Origin: a virus
Taxonomy: Duplodnaviria > Heunggongvirae > Uroviricota > Caudoviricetes
Reading direction: 5' to 3' (one strand)
DNA length: 8,021 nt
IMG/VR virus record: IMGVR_UViG_2778261358_000014
Part shown: positions 1 to 8,021 of the stretch, in pieces
Layout of the letters: each line of letters opens with the position of its first letter
How positions within the stretch are numbered: position 1 is the first letter of the stretch
Notes under the pieces: generated by a model
Database searches by the model: none
Seen by the model: only the letters and a program-made list of their open reading frames with translations
What the model was told of the DNA's origin: nothing
Made by a program: the position numbers and the translations under genes

Positions 1-927
1 TCAGTTTTTAGCCAGAGCGGTGACGGCATTGTCGAGTTTTTGCCATCCGCAATAGGTGATTGCTCTGAATGCTGTTGCGCCATTCTGGAAAAGGCTAACC
101 GCTCCTGATTCGGTTTTTATTACCGCCTCATCAGTTGGAGTTATAACCGTGGCTTCAACGTTAATAATCAGCTTTTGAGCGTCTATCAGCATCATGCGAT
201 CCGCCTGTTCGCTCACAATTACCGGTATTCTCAAAAGCTCTATCTGCCAGAACTCAGCATTAGTAAGCTGTAAGGCGTTTTCTACGGGCAAGATTAGCGA
301 CGACGTGGCAAGCGTGTTACCGTTCGCTATGTGCTTTTTGAAAAGCTCTATGAAGTTTTCGGCCTCATCAGCACCATTAAGCACGCCCTCAGGGGATACG
401 CCCGCCAACTCCTGGTCACTGGAAAGAAATTTTTTATCTATTTCTTTCACCGATTCCGATGTGATCAAGTCTCTGATCGCTGAATTGGTACCAGGGGTGC
501 TAAATTTGATTAGCTCGTTATTCAGCATCACAATAGCGCCGAGTTTGTACAGTTTTAGCGAGCTTTCGCTTACTTCTCCCCCTTTTACTGGGATTTCTTC
601 GGCCTCTTTAAGCCATTTACTCCCCTTGCCTGATATTGATTGCAATTTTGCGCCAAAGGGAAGATTAAGCGCACTACTGATTAACTTGCCAGGTACAGAC
701 TGCGAAAAAATATACCCGCCCAGCTCTCTTGCTATCGGCTCAGCCACCAGCGACGGAAGGTTATCCGTGTTCATTCCTGCTACTACGGATTTTTCAAGGA
801 ATAACGAGACAGCCGGATCATTTCTTTTCGTCATCTCTATAGCGTCAGCATGGCTAAATTTACACGATGCCAGCACGCTGGCGGCGCGAACTGCTGACAC
901 GCCTTTCATGTTTTTACAGATCATCAT
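1..927 (-). CDS. Putative phage major capsid protein (HK97-fold-like), 308 aa
   Basis: Long ORF with protein-like composition. The C-terminal half (GAIVMLNNELIKF...LRIPVIVSEQADRMMLIDAQKLIINVEATVI...) resembles the conserved C-terminal pattern of HK97-type capsid proteins, judged from memory. A strong RBS (AGGAGGAGGAAG) precedes tandem ATGs at 927/924. Stop TGA at 1-3. Confidence 0.45.
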   Translation of the reverse strand: MMICKNMKGVSAVRAASVLASCKFSHADAIEMTKRNDPAVSLFLEKSVVAGMNTDNLPSLVAEPIARELGGYIFSQSVPGKLISSALNLPFGAKLQSISGKGSKWLKEAEEIPVKGGEVSESSLKLYKLGAIVMLNNELIKFSTPGTNSAIRDLITSESVKEIDKKFLSSDQELAGVSPEGVLNGADEAENFIELFKKHIANGNTLATSSLILPVENALQLTNAEFWQIELLRIPVIVSEQADRMMLIDAQKLIINVEATVITPTDEAVIKTESGAVSLFQNGATAFRAITYCGWQKLDNAVTALAKN

Positions 928-1075
928 CTTCCTCCTCCTGGAAGCACGGTGTTAGTGTTTCGTGAAAATATGGCATCAGAATAGCGGCGGCCTGTAACCG
1001 TATTTCGGTCGGCTGCTGCTTGTCGTTCATGATTTCCGTTAGTACCTCGATCGGGTCTGTTATGTATTCGCTCAT
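914..1075 (-). CDS. Small acidic hypothetical protein (53 aa), not in the ORF track
   Basis: ATG at 1075 preceded by GAGGT (8-nt spacer). Product MSEYITDPIEVLTEIMNDKQQPTEIRLQAAAILMPYFHETLTPCFQEEEDDDL. Its stop overlaps the start of the capsid-like gene, suggesting coupling. Position between TerS and capsid suggests a head-assembly accessory. Confidence 0.3.
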   Translation of the reverse strand: MSEYITDPIEVLTEIMNDKQQPTEIRLQAAAILMPYFHETLTPCFQEEEDDDL

Positions 1076-1086
1076 AGTTCGCTACC

Positions 1087-1575
1087 TCAGTGTTTTAGGG
1101 CTGTTGGTGGCTTAGGGATGGGAAAGCGGTTTGATGAAACATTGGTAGCATTGAGTTTTTTTACCTCTTTTTTACCAATGCTGCTGATCTTGCGGTGGGT
1201 GAACTGGGCCAGCTTAAACGCGGCATCTAAAGCCAGTTTTGGATCTGTGTCCATGTTGTCAATCAGTATCCTGCCCATTGCTTTGATGGGGTCGGGTAGG
1301 CCGTTATCCATCATCTCAATGGTGTTAATTGATGCCCGTTCCGGTGTAACTTTTTCGGTAACTTTCTTTGTAACTTTTTTCGGTTTTGTAACCTGAAAAG
1401 TTACATCAGAAGTTACAGCCTTAAGATACTTTTTCACCTCAGGATCATTGGATAGCTGCCAGCCTTTAACCCTTGCGGTCTTTTCGCTGTATCCCGCATG
1501 TATAGCGGCTTCCGTGGGATTTGCGCCCCTTGATAACGCATCAGCAAACCGCTTTTTTTTGGTCGTTAATGCCAT
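1087..1575 (-). CDS. terS: Phage terminase small subunit (TerS, Terminase_2-like), 162 aa
   Basis: N-terminus MALTTKKKRFADALSRGANPTEAAIHAGYSEKTARVKGWQL matches the conserved TerS N-terminal HTH signature (KxRF...AGYS.KTA). The ATG at 1575 is preceded by GAGG. The ORF track extends to 1713, but that extension overlaps the upstream gene and a structured repeat region. Confidence 0.7.
   Translation of the reverse strand: MALTTKKKRFADALSRGANPTEAAIHAGYSEKTARVKGWQLSNDPEVKKYLKAVTSDVTFQVTKPKKVTKKVTEKVTPERASINTIEMMDNGLPDPIKAMGRILIDNMDTDPKLALDAAFKLAQFTHRKISSIGKKEVKKLNATNVSSNRFPIPKPPTALKH
1346..1416. repeat. Cluster of GTAAC/GTTAC short repeats inside terS (four direct, two inverted); candidate pac or TerS-binding site
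   Basis: GTAAC at 1346, 1358, 1370 and 1388, with AAAGTTAC / AGTTAC inverted copies at 1397-1416. The repeats encode the KVTKKVTEKVT linker. Two more GTGTAACTTTT copies lie just upstream of terS at 1598-1620. Confidence 0.4.
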
Positions 1576-1702
1576 GCAAAAACCTCGTTTTGAGGGGGTG
1601 TAACTTTTCGTGTAACTTTTTTGAAAAGCAAAATTTTCTACGAATGAGACGGGGGGCGGTGTCCAGGGCGATCGACTTTCCGGCCGGAACACTCCCCCCC
1701 TG

Positions 1703-2149: not shown

Positions 2150-2174
2150 GAAAAAAAGCCGGATTGCTCCGGCT
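2150..2174 (-). terminator. Rho-independent terminator ending the replication operon
   Basis: Hairpin AGCCGGA-ttgc-TCCGGCT (2157-2174) followed on the minus strand by a T7 run (plus-strand A-run 2151-2157), 19 nt after the stop of ORF 2193..2438. Confidence 0.6.
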
Positions 2175-2438: not shown

Positions 2439-2641
2439 TCCCCACTACTCCCCACTTTTGCTCCCCACTTTTTGAAATTACCCACCGTCTCCCCACCTCT
2501 TTTTTTTGTGATTCTAACGTTATGTTTTTCAATATGTTTTTTACTCCCCACTTTTTTGGGTATATACAGGTGGGAAAGTGGGTAATTATGTTTCAATTTT
2601 GTTAAATTCCCCACTCCCCCCACTTTTACTCCCCACTTTTT
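2439..2641. repeat. Iteron array, putative island replication origin
   Basis: At least eight direct copies of (CT)CCCCAC(T)4-8 (at 2440, 2450, 2463, 2491, 2546, 2609, 2616, 2631) plus an inverted copy GGTGGGAAAGTGGG (2569-2582), flanking an AT-rich core (about 2500-2545). It starts directly at the stop codon of the Rep helicase gene. Confidence 0.6.
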
Positions 2642-4040
2642 ACAGCGGGCGCACGTCATCACCGTCAATAACGATTACGCCATCATTTTCCAGCTTGTAC
2701 AGCCAGCGCCGGAAGTGCTTCATCTCATACCCCAGCTTTTTCATATCGTCGCGGAGAAGGGCGATAGTGCACGCCTCCCCGTGTGCTGTTCGTGTTCTGA
2801 TGCACTGCCATAGCGCGGCGTGATTCTCCGTCTTGTTCCCTGCCTCCTCGATGCGCTCCAGTTCAACGGGAGGGCGCGGCTTATCCACCACCACCAGCGA
2901 CGTGATTAACTCCCCGTCAGCGTCGGTAAAAAGCTCCACCACGCGTAAGTCATATGCTGCTTCTTTGAGTTCCTCCGCGTCCTTCATTTTGGTACATGAG
3001 ATAACCAGCGCTTCGCTGCCTGCGTCCTCCCTGCGTATCCGGTATTCGGCGTCCAGTGATGCACGAAATGCACTGGAACCACGCGCCCCCTTTGTTTCAT
3101 CCTTGCCGGAATGGTGAACCACCAGCACCGTTGCCCCTGTGCGCCGTTTCAGTTCGTCACACCCACGGATAAACGCCCCCATATCACGGGAATCATTTTC
3201 ATCATTGCCGCCAAAGCAGCGCGCCAGCGTATCCAGAATAATCATTCGAACCGGTTTACCCGTTTCCCGTTCCACCTGACGGGCAGCGATAACCATTTCC
3301 TCAACATCAAGCGGGGCAGCCGGAAAGATGGGACGGTTTACCAGATACAGATTTTTCACCTGCTCACCGTGCACAACCTCCCAGGCTTTTACACGACGCG
3401 GAACGCCGATACCGCCTTCACCAACCACATAGAGAACAGCGCCATGCGCCACCCTGCGGCCTCCCCACTGGCGGCCCGTGGAAACGTGACACGCCCACGA
3501 ACCCGCAAGGAACGATTTATATGAACCGCTCGCCCCGTATATGCTGCACAGCGATACCGCCGGAATAATCCCCTTAACCACGTAATCAAGTTGTGTGTCG
3601 TATCCGGCAGATCCCACGCTCATTGGTAGCGTGGTTTTTCGCTGGTGGTGTTTTTCTTCCCCTGGCTTTTTCCCCCGCTCCCGTTCCAGATATTCGCGCC
3701 AGTTCTCCCGCTTCTGGCTGTGCATCCCTTCGGGGTAATAATTCGCATCAGTTACACCCGCCGCCGCCAGCTTGTGCGCAATGGCATTAATATTTGATGG
3801 CCTGATGTGGCCTGCCTTGTACAGCCGGACACAATAGCGCCCCTCGTCGATGATTCTCAGGTCTGCCAGTTCATCCAGTTGATCATCAGCCAGCACAACG
3901 GGAGGCACATTATCGCCAGCCAGTCGCCCGTCCTGTTCCTGCCACTGTTTCGCATGTGCCCAGGCATCACTACCCGCAAAAATAATGACTTCGGTCATCT
4001 TGTCGTAAGGCTGTTTTTTTAAGTTCGGTGCGCTTTTCAT
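2640..4040 (-). CDS. RepA-like replicative helicase (RecA-fold / AAA_25-type ATPase) with a C-terminal putative origin-binding domain, 466 aa
   Basis: Walker A GASGSYKS (residues 169-176, nt 3513-3536), Walker B VRMIILD (about residue 270) and the VLVVHHSGKD motif typical of RepA/DnaB-like helicases. The start ATG overlaps the stop of the upstream ORF (ATGA). The gene is immediately followed by iterons. Confidence 0.85.
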   Translation of the reverse strand: MKSAPNLKKQPYDKMTEVIIFAGSDAWAHAKQWQEQDGRLAGDNVPPVVLADDQLDELADLRIIDEGRYCVRLYKAGHIRPSNINAIAHKLAAAGVTDANYYPEGMHSQKRENWREYLERERGKKPGEEKHHQRKTTLPMSVGSAGYDTQLDYVVKGIIPAVSLCSIYGASGSYKSFLAGSWACHVSTGRQWGGRRVAHGAVLYVVGEGGIGVPRRVKAWEVVHGEQVKNLYLVNRPIFPAAPLDVEEMVIAARQVERETGKPVRMIILDTLARCFGGNDENDSRDMGAFIRGCDELKRRTGATVLVVHHSGKDETKGARGSSAFRASLDAEYRIRREDAGSEALVISCTKMKDAEELKEAAYDLRVVELFTDADGELITSLVVVDKPRPPVELERIEEAGNKTENHAALWQCIRTRTAHGEACTIALLRDDMKKLGYEMKHFRRWLYKLENDGVIVIDGDDVRPL

Positions 4041-4799: not shown

Positions 4800-5017
4800 A
4801 ACCCCCCCTCCCCATTTTCACAATCAGCAACAAGAATATTTTTAGCGTCATTCAGCGACCGCGTGGCGGTGTATCGGATACATTCCAGGGCGAACAATGT
4901 GTATTCTTCCCGTTCTTCCTTTTGTGCAAGCCCTGCTGTGCATTCAATATCAATAAGCGCATGCATCAGCGTAGTGAGCGCGGCGGCTGCTGCGTCCGGT
5001 GTGGTTTTATTGCACAT
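4772..5017 (-). CDS. Hypothetical small protein (81 aa)
   Basis: Internal ATG at 5017 preceded by AGGAGG (6-nt spacer). It overlaps the stop of the upstream repeat-containing ORF, suggesting coupling. The ORF track's upstream extension to 5059 lacks an RBS. Confidence 0.5.
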   Translation of the reverse strand: MCNKTTPDAAAAALTTLMHALIDIECTAGLAQKEEREEYTLFALECIRYTATRSLNDAKNILVADCENGEGGLCVMIVLIP

Positions 5018-5567
5018 GGCACACCTCCTGACGAATACGGGCGGCGAATACAGCAACACAACCGGACGGGCAACGGCTACGTGCTTCGCGTTCCGTCCAG
5101 GCGGTTACGTGGATGATTTGATGTTCTGACGCGCCAAAGATGATAAAGCGCCAGAGAAAGGCGGTTTGAGAATGTACAAGGGTAGGGATAGTAGCCATGT
5201 TGGCAGCCTCCTCAGTGTGGTTAAGATAACCGCCACCGGAAACGCCAATTTCGCTGGTGGCGGACTGTACAGGGTTGGCGTAACCGGACACTGAAGAAAC
5301 CGGCGCGGATTGCTCCGCCCCCGTACAGCCCACCATTGATAAGGTGTGACTATGCGGCACAAAAAAACACGCGGGGCGCGTGTTATGCGCTTCAGTTTTG
5401 CCCAGGACGCCAATCCCGGCACCCGTTTTATGAGGTGCGCGGGAATCATAGCTATTTTCGACACTGGCGATCAACTGGTTTTTTTCTCCGATATTCAGGG
5501 CCAGAAAACGCCACACAAAGGCCGTTTGTGTGTGTACAAGGTGTGGTATATGATTTACGGCAACCAT
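5007..5567 (-). CDS. Repeat-containing open frame (186 codons) with two RBS-preceded in-frame starts (5567 and 5198); may be one protein, two paralogous small proteins, or a partly noncoding leader
   Basis: AGGAG + ATG at 5567 and AGGAGG + ATG at 5198. The paralogous N-terminal segments (M..IPxLVH[ST]QTAF[LV]WRF) differ mostly at third codon positions. An intrinsic terminator sits inside the frame at 5357-5384. The ORF track's 409-aa extension beyond 5567 is rejected. Confidence 0.3.
   Translation of the reverse strand: MVAVNHIPHLVHTQTAFVWRFLALNIGEKNQLIASVENSYDSRAPHKTGAGIGVLGKTEAHNTRPACFFVPHSHTLSMVGCTGAEQSAPVSSVSGYANPVQSATSEIGVSGGGYLNHTEEAANMATIPTLVHSQTAFLWRFIIFGASEHQIIHVTAWTEREARSRCPSGCVAVFAARIRQEVCHVQ
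5357..5384 (-). terminator. Strong intrinsic terminator on the minus strand, about 210 nt downstream of the leftward promoter
   Basis: Stem AACACGCG / CGCGTGTT (8 bp, GC-rich, 3-nt loop, plus-strand 5366-5384) followed on the minus strand by a run of seven U (plus-strand A-run 5361-5367). Confidence 0.55.
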
Positions 5568-5596
5568 AACGGCTCCTAGTTTACGTTGTTGGTTAG

Positions 5597-5638
5597 ACGC
5601 CCCGTATGTGTTCCCAGCACTGCGGGGCGTTGATTTTT
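5597..5638 (+). terminator. Hairpin plus T-run on the plus strand (terminator-like); its complement also forms a 5' leader hairpin of the leftward transcript
   Basis: Stem ACGCCCCG / CGGGGCGT (5597-5604 / 5623-5630) with an inner 5-bp helix, followed by TGATTTTTGTG. It sits 18 nt after the stop of a plus-strand ORF (5352..5579) that is antisense to the leader ORF. Confidence 0.4.
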
Positions 5639-6250: not shown

Positions 6251-6457
6251 TTAAGCAGCCGTTCCGCGTGCTTCCTCTTCGCGTTCTTTCTGCCAGGACA
6301 ACACATCATCCTCATACCATCCGCGACGGCGTAAACCAACGCGAAAACCCTGCGGAAATTCTCCGGCGTTGATCATGCTTTGCAGCGTGCTGTCTGCCTT
6401 GATGTGGATAATTTTTTTTACTTCCTGGCGAAAGATAATTTTTCTGATTGCTTCCAT
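6251..6457 (-). CDS. alpA: AlpA/Vis-family transcriptional regulator (excisionase-like MerR-type HTH), 68 aa
   Basis: Motif ...LQSMINAGEFPQGFRVGLRRRGWYEDDVLSWQ matches the AlpA signature (FP...G.R..GW.E.DV..W). RBS AAGGT upstream of ATG 6457. Located next to a P4-type integrase, as in P4 (Vis) and CP4-57 (AlpA). Confidence 0.8.
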   Translation of the reverse strand: MEAIRKIIFRQEVKKIIHIKADSTLQSMINAGEFPQGFRVGLRRRGWYEDDVLSWQKEREEEARGTAA

Positions 6458-6624: not shown

Positions 6625-6807
6625 TTACCGCCATTTTTTGGGCCTGCCTCCGATCTTCATAGATGCCGGACGTACGACCTTATCAATACTTACCGCCAGA
6701 TTTCTGGAAGCGCCACGGGATACCAGAAAATCTACTACCTGTTTTTTTGATGGGGCCGTCGTTCTGTCCTCCGGATCGTAGGTTGACCAAAATTCATGCT
6801 GAACCAT
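6625..6807 (-). CDS. Hypothetical small basic protein (60 aa) translationally coupled to the 3' end of the integrase
   Basis: Its ATG (6807..6805) overlaps the integrase stop TGA (6809..6807) as ATGA. The frame ends 12 nt before the terminator. The ORF track's longer version (from 6855) overlaps the integrase coding sequence. Confidence 0.3.
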   Translation of the reverse strand: MVQHEFWSTYDPEDRTTAPSKKQVVDFLVSRGASRNLAVSIDKVVRPASMKIGGRPKKWR

Positions 6808-8021
6808 CAGGGCCAGTTGCAGCCCGTCGCCGCAGCCTCGACAAATTCGCCCCACCAGCGCATCAGCACGATGCGTTTTTCTATGTAGTTGCTCCGGTTG
6901 TATGCCCGTCTAACTTCGTTGGTGTCGACGTGGGCAAGTGCCGCCTCTATTACGTCCGGCTCGAATCCTTCCTCGTTCGCTGCTGTGCTGAATATGGCGC
7001 GTAATCCATGAGACACCAGCACGCCAGCGAATCCCATACGCCGCAATGCTGCGTTAGCTGTCTGGCTGTTCATCGGCTGCTGTGGGTCTTTCAGACTTGG
7101 GAAAACGTAATTGCGGTGGTGGCTGATTGGTTTCATGGCCTCCAGCACCGCCATAGCCTGACCGGAAAGCGGGATAACGTGATCCCTGCGCATCTTCATG
7201 CGTCCGGCAGGTATCGTCCATTGCTTCGCGTCCAGGTTGATTTCATCCCACCGCGTTGATGACGCTTCGGCGGGACGGGTTACGGTCAGTAACTGCCATT
7301 CAATCAGTAATCTGGTCTGCCGTTCTGTTGCCGATACTGATAAAGCCTGCATAAGCTCGGGCAGCTGTTCGGGGCGGATTGTTGGCATATGTTTTTTTAC
7401 AGGTGAGGGAAACGCCTTACGCACATTCATAGCCGGATTGGCATCAATCAGCCCACTGTTGGCGGCGTAATCCATTACCTCATTAACGCGCTGTAAAACC
7501 CGCTTGAGTGTTTCCAGGTTGCCGCGCTCCTTGATGGGGGTAAGCACTTCAACGAACCTTCGGGCGGTGAGGGTATCTATTGGCGTGTTGCCGATGAACG
7601 GGAATACATATTTATCCAGCGAACGCCAGATGTCTTTAATCGTGTTGGGGGCCAGATTCTGGCTGATTTTCACCTGGTACCATGCCGCCGCCACATTTTC
7701 GAACGTGTTCCCTTGTCTTCGGGCCTCTGTCTCTCTTTTTTGCCTCTCGTGGTCCTGCGGGTCAGTTCCGGCACTGATTAACGTCCTGTACTCGCTACGG
7801 CGTTTTCTGGCATCAGCCAGGGAAACATCTTCAAGCGATCCAAAACTCAGCAATATTCTTTTTTTGTCCGATGGTCGGTAGTAGGAAAATCTCCAGAGTT
7901 TTGATCCAGACGGTTTGACCAGGAGAAAAAGCCCTCCGCCGTCCTGCAGGGTGTACTCCTTTTGCGCTGGTCTGGCTGCTTTGATCTGCACTGTGGTTAA
8001 TGGGTGTGTTTTTCTCGCCAT
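6807..8021 (-). CDS. int: Tyrosine site-specific integrase, P4-type, 404 aa (complete; ATG is the last three bases of the window)
   Basis: N-terminus MARKTHPLTTVQIKAARPAQKEYTLQDGGGLFLLVKPSGSKLWRFSYY is the characteristic P4-integrase N-terminal (arm-binding) motif. The C-terminus carries HGLRAIF (HxxR) and the VRRAYNRSNYIEKR region with the catalytic Tyr. Confidence 0.9.
   Translation of the reverse strand: MARKTHPLTTVQIKAARPAQKEYTLQDGGGLFLLVKPSGSKLWRFSYYRPSDKKRILLSFGSLEDVSLADARKRRSEYRTLISAGTDPQDHERQKRETEARRQGNTFENVAAAWYQVKISQNLAPNTIKDIWRSLDKYVFPFIGNTPIDTLTARRFVEVLTPIKERGNLETLKRVLQRVNEVMDYAANSGLIDANPAMNVRKAFPSPVKKHMPTIRPEQLPELMQALSVSATERQTRLLIEWQLLTVTRPAEASSTRWDEINLDAKQWTIPAGRMKMRRDHVIPLSGQAMAVLEAMKPISHHRNYVFPSLKDPQQPMNSQTANAALRRMGFAGVLVSHGLRAIFSTAANEEGFEPDVIEAALAHVDTNEVRRAYNRSNYIEKRIVLMRWWGEFVEAAATGCNWP

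Follow-up and report, generated by a model that had tools for sequence, protein, structure and literature searches.

The window analysed here is an 8,021-nt stretch of viral DNA (IMG/VR record IMGVR_UViG_2778261358_000014; Duplodnaviria; Heunggongvirae; Uroviricota; Caudoviricetes), in which all genes lie on the minus strand. Among them is terS, which encodes a protein of 162 aa (1575..1087, minus strand), and a 127-bp gap (1576-1702) lies before its ATG at 1575. Short GTAAC/GTTAC repeats occur both in this gap and inside the gene, and a block resembling the cohesive-end (cos) site of certain phages stands upstream of them. Judged from its gene content, the window is a phage satellite of the phage-inducible chromosomal island (PICI) type, with the layout of a Gram-negative PICI. 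We propose, as a probable reading of these features, that the island is packaged by an HNH-dependent (HK97-like) cos mechanism, in which AGTTAC repeats would act as cosB-like sites for the island's own TerS, which in turn would recruit TerL and the HNH protein of a helper phage.

The gene at 1575..1087 encodes a small terminase of the Terminase_2 family. Residues 3-57 match Pfam Terminase_2 (PF03592) with E=1.2e-10, above the curated cut-off, the full length matches phrog_641 with E=2.6e-43, and the 162-aa terS is also annotated by RefSeq in strain FORC_028. An AlphaFold2 model shows a confident 4-helix N-domain, a disordered segment at 57-84 and core helices at 96-126, and the protein is laid out as an N-terminal helix-turn-helix (1-56), a linker (57-84), and a core and tail that resemble helper-type TerS. 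The predicted local distance difference test (pLDDT) score drops below 50 only at residues 57-84, where the repeats fall, and constraint at the protein level should therefore be weak there. The closest phage TerS proteins, 46% identical over 96% of the length, come from Stx1a, Stx2a, Stx2c, BP-4795 and PPompW-type prophages (Stx, Shiga toxin). In comparison with the Stx-phage TerS, residues 85-126 are well conserved while the linker is unrelated, and the core and tail together (85-157) are much closer than the linker is. Likeness over 85-157 is what recruitment of a helper TerL would require.

Eight GTAAC/GTTAC copies had been reported in and just upstream of terS, and all eight are present at the positions given in the original prediction. 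Four direct copies, GTAAC on the plus strand, lie inside terS at 1346-1350, 1358-1362, 1370-1374 and 1388-1392, the last being weak and without a T-tract. Two inverted copies, GTTAC on the plus strand, follow at 1400-1404 and 1412-1416. The remaining two, GTGTAACTTTT on the plus strand (1598-1609 and 1610-1622), are in the gap, and read on the minus strand as AAAAAAGTTACAC and GAAAAGTTACAC in tandem, spaced by 12 bp. The intragenic cluster (1343..1417, minus strand) occupies linker codons for residues 53-78. Its minus-strand order is inverted GTAACT at 1416..1411 and 1404..1399, then direct GTTAC at 1392..1388, 1374..1370, 1362..1358 and 1350..1346, and the encoded linker peptide is A53-VT-SD-VT-FQ-VT-KPKK-VT-KK-VT-EK-VT-P78.

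Chance does not account for the repeats. In the whole window there are six copies of GTAACTTT, where 0.24 would be expected; all six fall in 1346-1619, and none of 200 shuffles reached six. AAGTTAC occurs eight times (expected 0.64; 0/200 shuffles reach eight), seven of them in 1346-1618. A repeat finder returned the same direct and inverted families.

The closest phage relatives have the gene order HNH, terS, terL and a 645-aa protease-capsid fusion (the major head protein), and the phage HNH gene is followed by ~57 nt that are ~80% identical to window positions 1702..1645 (Stx2a_1447). The conserved cos core block in the window (1640..1702, minus strand) consists of a G7 run, ~30 nt, GGACAC, the overhang and CTCA, in which GGACAC-CGCCCCCCGT-CTCA is found at 1664..1645, just upstream of the repeats. 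Lys8385Vzw, a member of the same phage group, was reported on the basis of PhageTerm to be a cos phage with 10-nt 3′ cohesive ends CGCCCCCCCT (PMC7946995), and its record starts at the base right after the CGCCCCCCCT 10-mer. The island 10-mer CGCCCCCCGT agrees with that of Lys8385Vzw at 9 of 10 bases and is identical in a subset of Stx-type viral contigs, with the flanks GGACAC and CTCA conserved. The island shares this cohesive-end sequence with phages that package by cos.

By this homology, CGCCCCCCGT (1658..1649, minus strand) is the predicted cohesive end of the island, expected as a 10-nt 3′ overhang, with the predicted cut between 1649 and 1648. Counted from that cut, the upstream pair of repeats starts at +33 and +45 and the intragenic cluster extends from +233 to +299. 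HK97, the model for this class, is similar: an HNH protein stimulates cleavage of its cos, the ends again being 10-nt 3′ overhangs, and the site bound by its TerS, 15 bp with an A-tract, occupies +15 to +29 relative to the cut (PMC11331095). We propose from the arrangement that the upstream pair would be proximal and cosB-like, and the intragenic cluster distal, putative TerS-binding sites. Because the island encodes neither terL nor an HNH gene, cleavage would have to come from a helper enzyme suited to this type of cos. Candidate helper prophages encode both HNH and TerL, and one satellite variant (L004, below) has an HNH-like gene of its own.

The cos core also contains a partial dyad, GGACACCGCCCCCC facing GAACACTCCCCCCC, with arms at 1651-1664 and 1687-1700 and three mismatches. 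Since the reported overhang lies in the terS-proximal arm, the centre of the dyad is not the cut. As a hairpin or terminator the G7/C7 dyad is not convincing, as it folds no better than shuffles (z = -0.91). A lambda-like cosN (GGGCGGCGACCT) was considered and dropped after the HNH-type cos had been recognised. Inspection by eye found no fit to the IHF consensus from the cut to the first site.

The arrangement was compared across nine loci anchored on the cos core. Besides the window, these were the E. coli satellites L004 and L013, the Hafnia alvei prophage L006 (HNH-terS-terL-capsid), the Salmonella and metagenomic satellite-like loci L008/L009, L010 and L014, and the Stx phage L002. Comparison loci were obtained by a search for TerS-encoding contigs and by a cos-core pattern scan of IMG/VR; a search of genome contigs with the TerS alignment gave 37 pattern matches, of which none was confirmed. 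The core block is present in L004, L006, L008/L009 and L014 and divergent in L010 and L013, and the clade-A contig L012 is without upstream sequence. TerS is the sole window protein that is present in all motif-bearing loci.

Three configurations around one cleavage core emerged from the IMG/VR cos-core scan. Clade A has AGTTAC sites, with W, C or Y at TerS position 39. In clade B the sites read GTTAAC and terS begins at ~+229 to +230. Clade C has GT[A/T]AAC and then ATGTTAACA, which overlaps the terS start. Position 39 is in the predicted recognition helix and is Ser in clades B and C, whose DNA-binding domains resemble each other. Over the only two specificity classes sampled, the motif covaries with the DNA-binding domain, as AGTTAC goes with that of clade A and GT[T/A]AAC with that of clades B and C.

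The distance of the first site from the cut is nearly constant. Wherever a clade-A core could be located (window, L004, L006, L008/L009, L014), the first AAAAGTTACAC is at +33 from the predicted cut, and a copy of AAAAGTTACAC lies upstream of terS in the clade-A loci (L012 having no upstream sequence to show). In L004, +33 is kept although the gap is ~240 nt, and a further ~200 nt with five more copies intervene before terS. The Stx phage has GTTAACATGTTAAC at +34, with another three GTTAAC behind it; of seven GTTAAC in the 8.5 kb of L002, five are clustered in 120 bp (3802-3921). A site thus stands on the terS side at a fixed distance, which is +33 in clade A and +34 in clades B and C.

Several observations on individual loci belong here. 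L004/L005 (3348-4474) is an E. coli satellite variant with a TerS that is 62% identical and an HNH-like gene upstream of cos; its gap holds six GTTAC/GTAAC copies, one of them inverted, in addition to intragenic copies. In L002, an ATG inside GTTAACATGTTAAC opens a 26-codon hydrophobic open reading frame (ORF) at 3808-3888, MLTGCPGIFAVFIFIIQFVVRKKC, which may be the remnant of an ancestral terS start of the clade-C kind rather than a gene. In the clade-C loci L015-L099 (for example L016 and L015), terS starts inside the +41 site, and ATGTTAACA encodes M-L-T. In L013 (3001-6474), the clade-A terS is directly followed by the type I restriction-modification genes hsdM and hsdS and not by a capsid homologue; L013 looks like a satellite that carries defence cargo.

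The fixed offset bears on whether the repeats are mainly an operator, by which TerS or another protein would autoregulate the late operon, with packaging specificity residing elsewhere. The upstream pair does span -41 to -25 relative to the terS ATG, just 5′ of the ribosome-binding site, and a switching role between transcription and packaging has been suggested for the TerS of SF6/SPP1 (PMC4737164). However, the constant distance is to the cos cut and not to the start codon, as in L004, where the +33 site is kept with terS ~230 nt downstream, and a promoter scan of 1000-2700 gave no sigma-70-like site. An operator as the principal role is therefore unlikely, and an operator role of the upstream pair is possible alongside the proposed cos packaging, with which it is compatible rather than exclusive.

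If the motif is what TerS reads, the presence of GTTAAC in helpers and AGTTAC in the island means that the two TerS proteins should discriminate island from phage DNA. This would not hold if the sites merely copied the cosB of a helper, as in P4 or SaPIbov5, in which case the helper would be a clade-A phage and the island TerS would redirect nothing. Such phages can be conceived, as the Hafnia prophage L006/L007 and contig L012 have a clade-A terS beside terL and the same motif. On the other hand, clade-A TerS was absent from 50,697 phage records, a result limited by database content, and the best match there to the DNA-binding domain was 61% identical and of clade B. At the DNA level in E. 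coli genomes, matches over at least 80% of the terS region all turned out to be copies of the island, and the E. coli clade-A TerS variant P0005 also sits in a satellite. Copying of a helper cosB is unlikely.

Candidate clade-B helpers are common. The clade-B cos-terS module is found in 1253 of 5426 complete E. coli genomes (23%), and strain 10159 has the island together with five places matching the clade-B module. In a spread sample of 11 island-bearing genomes, 10 have at least one extra place matching the query, a rough count that is confounded by lineage.

The original prediction had taken the repeats for a candidate headful pac site, to which the island TerS would bind while helper TerL cuts imprecisely and fills the head. 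Repeats in or beside terS are indeed typical of pac sites, SPP1/SF6, with a TerS of this Pfam family, being an example (PMC4737164). Against this, the island has no terL, all close TerS relatives adjoin an HNH gene and a cos core in the order HNH-terS-terL, the member of the phage group with reported ends has 10-nt 3′ cohesive ends, and the window has that core 33 nt upstream of the repeats. A headful-type terminase without unique cohesive ends was not found, and headful packaging from a pac site is very unlikely. What survives of the prediction is that the element is, by sequence comparison, a phage satellite with its own TerS, and that the repeats are a plausible TerS recognition element, given that their nucleotides are conserved in coding and non-coding DNA and that a different repeat accompanies a different TerS domain. 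The comparison with helper terS genes that it had suggested does give a separate repeat, GTTAAC, in the phages. The repeats are better described as the putative TerS-binding (cosB-like) arm of a cos site, and together with the cos copy and the island's own terS they would probably direct packaging to the island.

Evidence that the intragenic copies matter as DNA comes from codon choice. The motif is kept in eight clade-A loci, in which TerS is 54-62% identical to the window protein. Across these loci, all 19 direct copies are written GTT-AC[A/C] and all 11 inverted copies GTA-ACT, GTA being a rare Val codon in E. coli. The common linker plan is two inverted copies followed by two to four direct ones; L006 has one inverted copy only, L014 has one direct copy, and the inverted positions of L004 and L013 are degenerate (GCAACT). 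At two aligned KVT columns, the third base of the Val codon is T in 8/8 and 7/7 sequences. At the repeat Val codons the third bases agree completely (identity 1.0), as opposed to a pairwise identity of 0.18-0.75 (mean ~0.34) at 19 other conserved four-fold sites of the same genes.

The encoded peptides differ with orientation, since inverted copies encode VTS or VTF and direct copies KVT. Different peptides with one 6-mer mean that the common unit is the DNA sequence AGTTAC and not a peptide. From lineage to lineage the flanking residues change, and the segment therefore does not simply reflect recent shared ancestry. In clade C, the linker dipeptide VN is encoded by GTAAAC in 16 cases and GTTAAC in five, and never by other codons; such embedding means that the design of sites within codons is not unique to the clade of the island. 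These patterns indicate that the intragenic copies are selected as DNA. That they instead reflect a repetitive KVT linker made by slippage and kept by protein selection, with upstream copies that are unrelated or due to chance, is very unlikely and strongly disfavoured, because codon choice is set by orientation while other synonymous sites are randomised, because VTS/VTF and KVT peptides share one DNA 6-mer, and because the same 11-mer stands in non-coding DNA at a fixed cos offset, even though the 12-bp tandem units and the close TerS variants P0003 and P0004, which have lost one or two KVT units, show that slippage occurs.

We conceived a further and more tentative reading, to which we give slightly less than even weight. 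The TerS linker may be dual-coding, so that its codons would form the distal sites for the putative binding of the very protein that they encode, with the VT and VN dipeptides as by-products. The satellite would then have captured a cassette of TerS plus sites and joined it to the cleavage core of another lineage, yielding a private packaging address that makes use of helper TerL and HNH. If this is true, the recognition code of the family can be read directly and is easy to test, and the linker would be a clean natural case of a coding segment under a DNA-binding code with orientation-specific codon usage.

The proposed cos packaging of the island could proceed as follows. First, induction by a helper would lead to island excision and replication. 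Second, the island TerS would form a ring whose helix-turn-helix domains engage the 12-bp-phased, A-tract-preceded sites at +33/+45 and at +233 to +299, the two clusters flanking the DNA that codes for the DNA-binding domain. Third, the helper-like core and the C-terminal tail of TerS would recruit helper TerL and HNH, which would cut the island cos, and packaging would run from cos toward terS. A helper TerS of the GTTAAC type would ignore island DNA, and the island TerS would ignore helper DNA. Such a model has a precedent in the TerS of SF6/SPP1, of the same Pfam family, a ring of helix-turn-helix motifs spaced by about one DNA turn, whose repeat boxes flank the terS start and for which selection of bent DNA has been proposed (PMC4737164).

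Several points weigh against this model. The DNA-binding domains of SF6 TerS show little sequence specificity in vitro (PMC4737164), and a strict motif-reading model may therefore be too simple. HK97 TerS reads DNA through its central tunnel and not by a helix-turn-helix ring, which makes the analogy with HK97 positional only. The cut position in the island is predicted by homology alone. TerS homology or the cos core served to find the loci for comparison, and the association of motif and TerS is therefore partly circular. The number of sites varies by lineage (1-6 upstream and 3-6 intragenic, with KVT losses in P0003/P0004), so that no particular copy number can be required. In a genuine Hafnia prophage, L006, a TerS of clade A goes together with AGTTAC sites, as in the island, which means that the module did not originate with satellites and that certain helpers may have the island's specificity. 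Literature searches found no paper that treats this island.

The rest of the window supports its assignment as a satellite. The integrase gene int (8021..6807, minus strand) is followed by alpA (6457..6251, minus strand) and a RepA-type/AAA_25 helicase gene (4040..2640, minus strand). Directly downstream of the helicase gene, iterons at 2440-2641 comprise CTCCCCACTTTT and longer families of 18-45 nt, including an inverted pair at 2476-2494 and 2569-2587, and are probably the replication origin of the island. Small ORFs lie between the iterons and terS. The features expected of a PICI are found together: int, AlpA, a replication gene with an adjacent origin, unidirectional genes, a length of ~8-9 kb and integration at a tRNA gene.

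Copies of the island, 96-98% identical, are present in ~220 of the 5426 E. coli genomes, many of them enterohaemorrhagic E. coli. In strain FORC_028, the island is ~8.5 kb and lies between tRNA-Pro/yejM and yejO. A megablast search of 1-2700 against phage records gave no match at the DNA level, and the island is therefore not a deposited phage. A terS homologue in some Gram-negative PICIs has been noted earlier without being characterised (PMC6092414). In literature searches, neither a paper on the packaging site of terS-bearing E. coli PICIs nor a published report of helper-driven induction or transfer of this island was found.

A strong terminator-like hairpin AGCCGGAGCAATCCGGCT with a T-run (2157-2174, minus strand) stands 3′ of an 81-aa ORF, and is followed by ~100 bp of AT-rich DNA (2063-2160) and then by the orf64-orf53-terS block. 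The hairpin and the AT-rich stretch may mark where a late or packaging operon under separate control begins. Across 1000-2700, Rfam gave only sub-threshold miRNA and Y_RNA noise, and thus no known RNA. Farther away, two similar short segments, GAGAAAGGCGGTTTGAGAATGTACAAGG and CACAAAGGCCGTTTGTGTGTGTACAAGG, occur in 5007-5600; the equivalent region of a sister island in RefSeq holds an Icd-like cell-division inhibitor and an ash-family pseudogene.

Directly 3′ of terS is a 53-aa ORF (1075..914, minus strand), which matches positions 89-126 of phrog_641. It resembles the core helix pair of TerS (DP..L..IM.D....R..AA..L.PY.H) with an acidic tail, and shares 38% identity over 32 aa with the core of clade-C TerS. 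Homologues of ~50 aa follow clade-A terS in L008-L012 and L014; the homologue is at 4501-4629 in L006 and at 533-682 in L012, and in the Hafnia prophage L006/L007 it is unannotated between terS and terL. No homologue was found in L004, L013 or the Stx phage. The ORF was considered as a satellite-specific decoy, against which its homologues beside terL in the Hafnia prophage and L012 argue; it could be an accessory or interfering subunit of terminase.

The last gene in the window encodes a truncated capsid homologue of 308 aa (927..1, minus strand) with a match to Pfam Phage_capsid. Its counterpart in the Stx phage is residues 291-633 of the 645-aa major head protein (24% identity), so that it represents the C-terminal capsid half alone, with the protease/scaffold half missing. 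Capsid homologues follow terS in other satellites as well. By analogy with the Ccm of SaPIbov5, that of the island is possibly a Ccm-like factor for capsid size.

Satellites are known to secure preferential packaging by three routes: Staphylococcus aureus pathogenicity islands (SaPIs) use their own TerS and a pac site, P4 and SaPIbov5 a copied helper cos, and EcCICFT073 an Rpp protein that acts on helper TerS. The island appears to combine these routes, with a helper-compatible cos core, its own TerS and its own putative cosB-like sites. Because the HNH-dependent cos class includes many Shiga-toxin prophages, and the island and the helper modules are found at the above frequencies in E. coli genomes, such packaging could influence how widely the island spreads as well as how much Stx phage is produced.

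Among the closest known systems are the EcCICFT073-type PICIs (Fillol-Salom 2018, 2019; PMC6092414, PMC6739421), which are likewise Gram-negative PICIs with the order int, alpA, replication gene and origin, and which keep the cleavage core of the helper cos with their own TerS-binding elements beside it, giving them their own specificity. Their helpers, however, lack HNH and have a cos with 12-nt 5′ ends (lambda and phi80), and their specificity comes from Rpp, which forms a heterodimer with phage TerS. The island instead has a full Terminase_2 TerS, no Rpp-like match by sequence (no Rpp chain among PDB sequence matches of TerS, orf64 and orf81 at E<=1), and most of its sites inside the gene. 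The capsid-forming cf-PICIs such as EcCIEDL933 are also E. coli PICIs with packaging in the HNH-terS-terL style, but they encode HNH, TerL, portal, protease and capsid along with TerS, whereas the island encodes only TerS, the small ORF and the truncated capsid homologue.

The pac-type SaPIs (SaPI1, SaPIbov1) resemble the island in having a TerS homologue, an island-specific site and reliance on helper TerL. They differ in being headful and in Staphylococcus, whereas the E. coli island belongs with cos and HNH and so needs a helper-compatible cleavage core. The cos SaPIs (SaPIbov5) share the HNH-terS-terL helper class, a cos site and a capsid homologue (Ccm), but have no terS and rely on recognition of their cos by the helper, to which the E. 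coli island adds its own TerS and sites.

Among phages, HK97 (PMC11331095) is alike in its 10-nt 3′ overhang, HNH-assisted cleavage and an A-tract TerS site downstream on the terS side. In HK97 this is a single 15-bp site read through the TerS tunnel, while the island has multiple 12-bp-phased repeats in two clusters ~200 bp apart and a TerS of the family with an N-terminal helix-turn-helix. The pac system of SPP1/SF6, with pacL/pacR boxes and G1P (PMC4737164), shares Terminase_2, direct repeats upstream of and in the 5′ part of terS, and, in the model, bent DNA with AT runs engaged by a helix-turn-helix ring; it differs in being headful, in its Gram-positive hosts and in its unrelated sequences.

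Thus, the parts of the island are known in kind, namely a satellite TerS, a divergent cosB, a cos core shared with helpers and a capsid homologue. What is new is their combination in an HNH-cos system, and the placement of most of the putative recognition sites in the linker codons of TerS in an orientation-specific manner.

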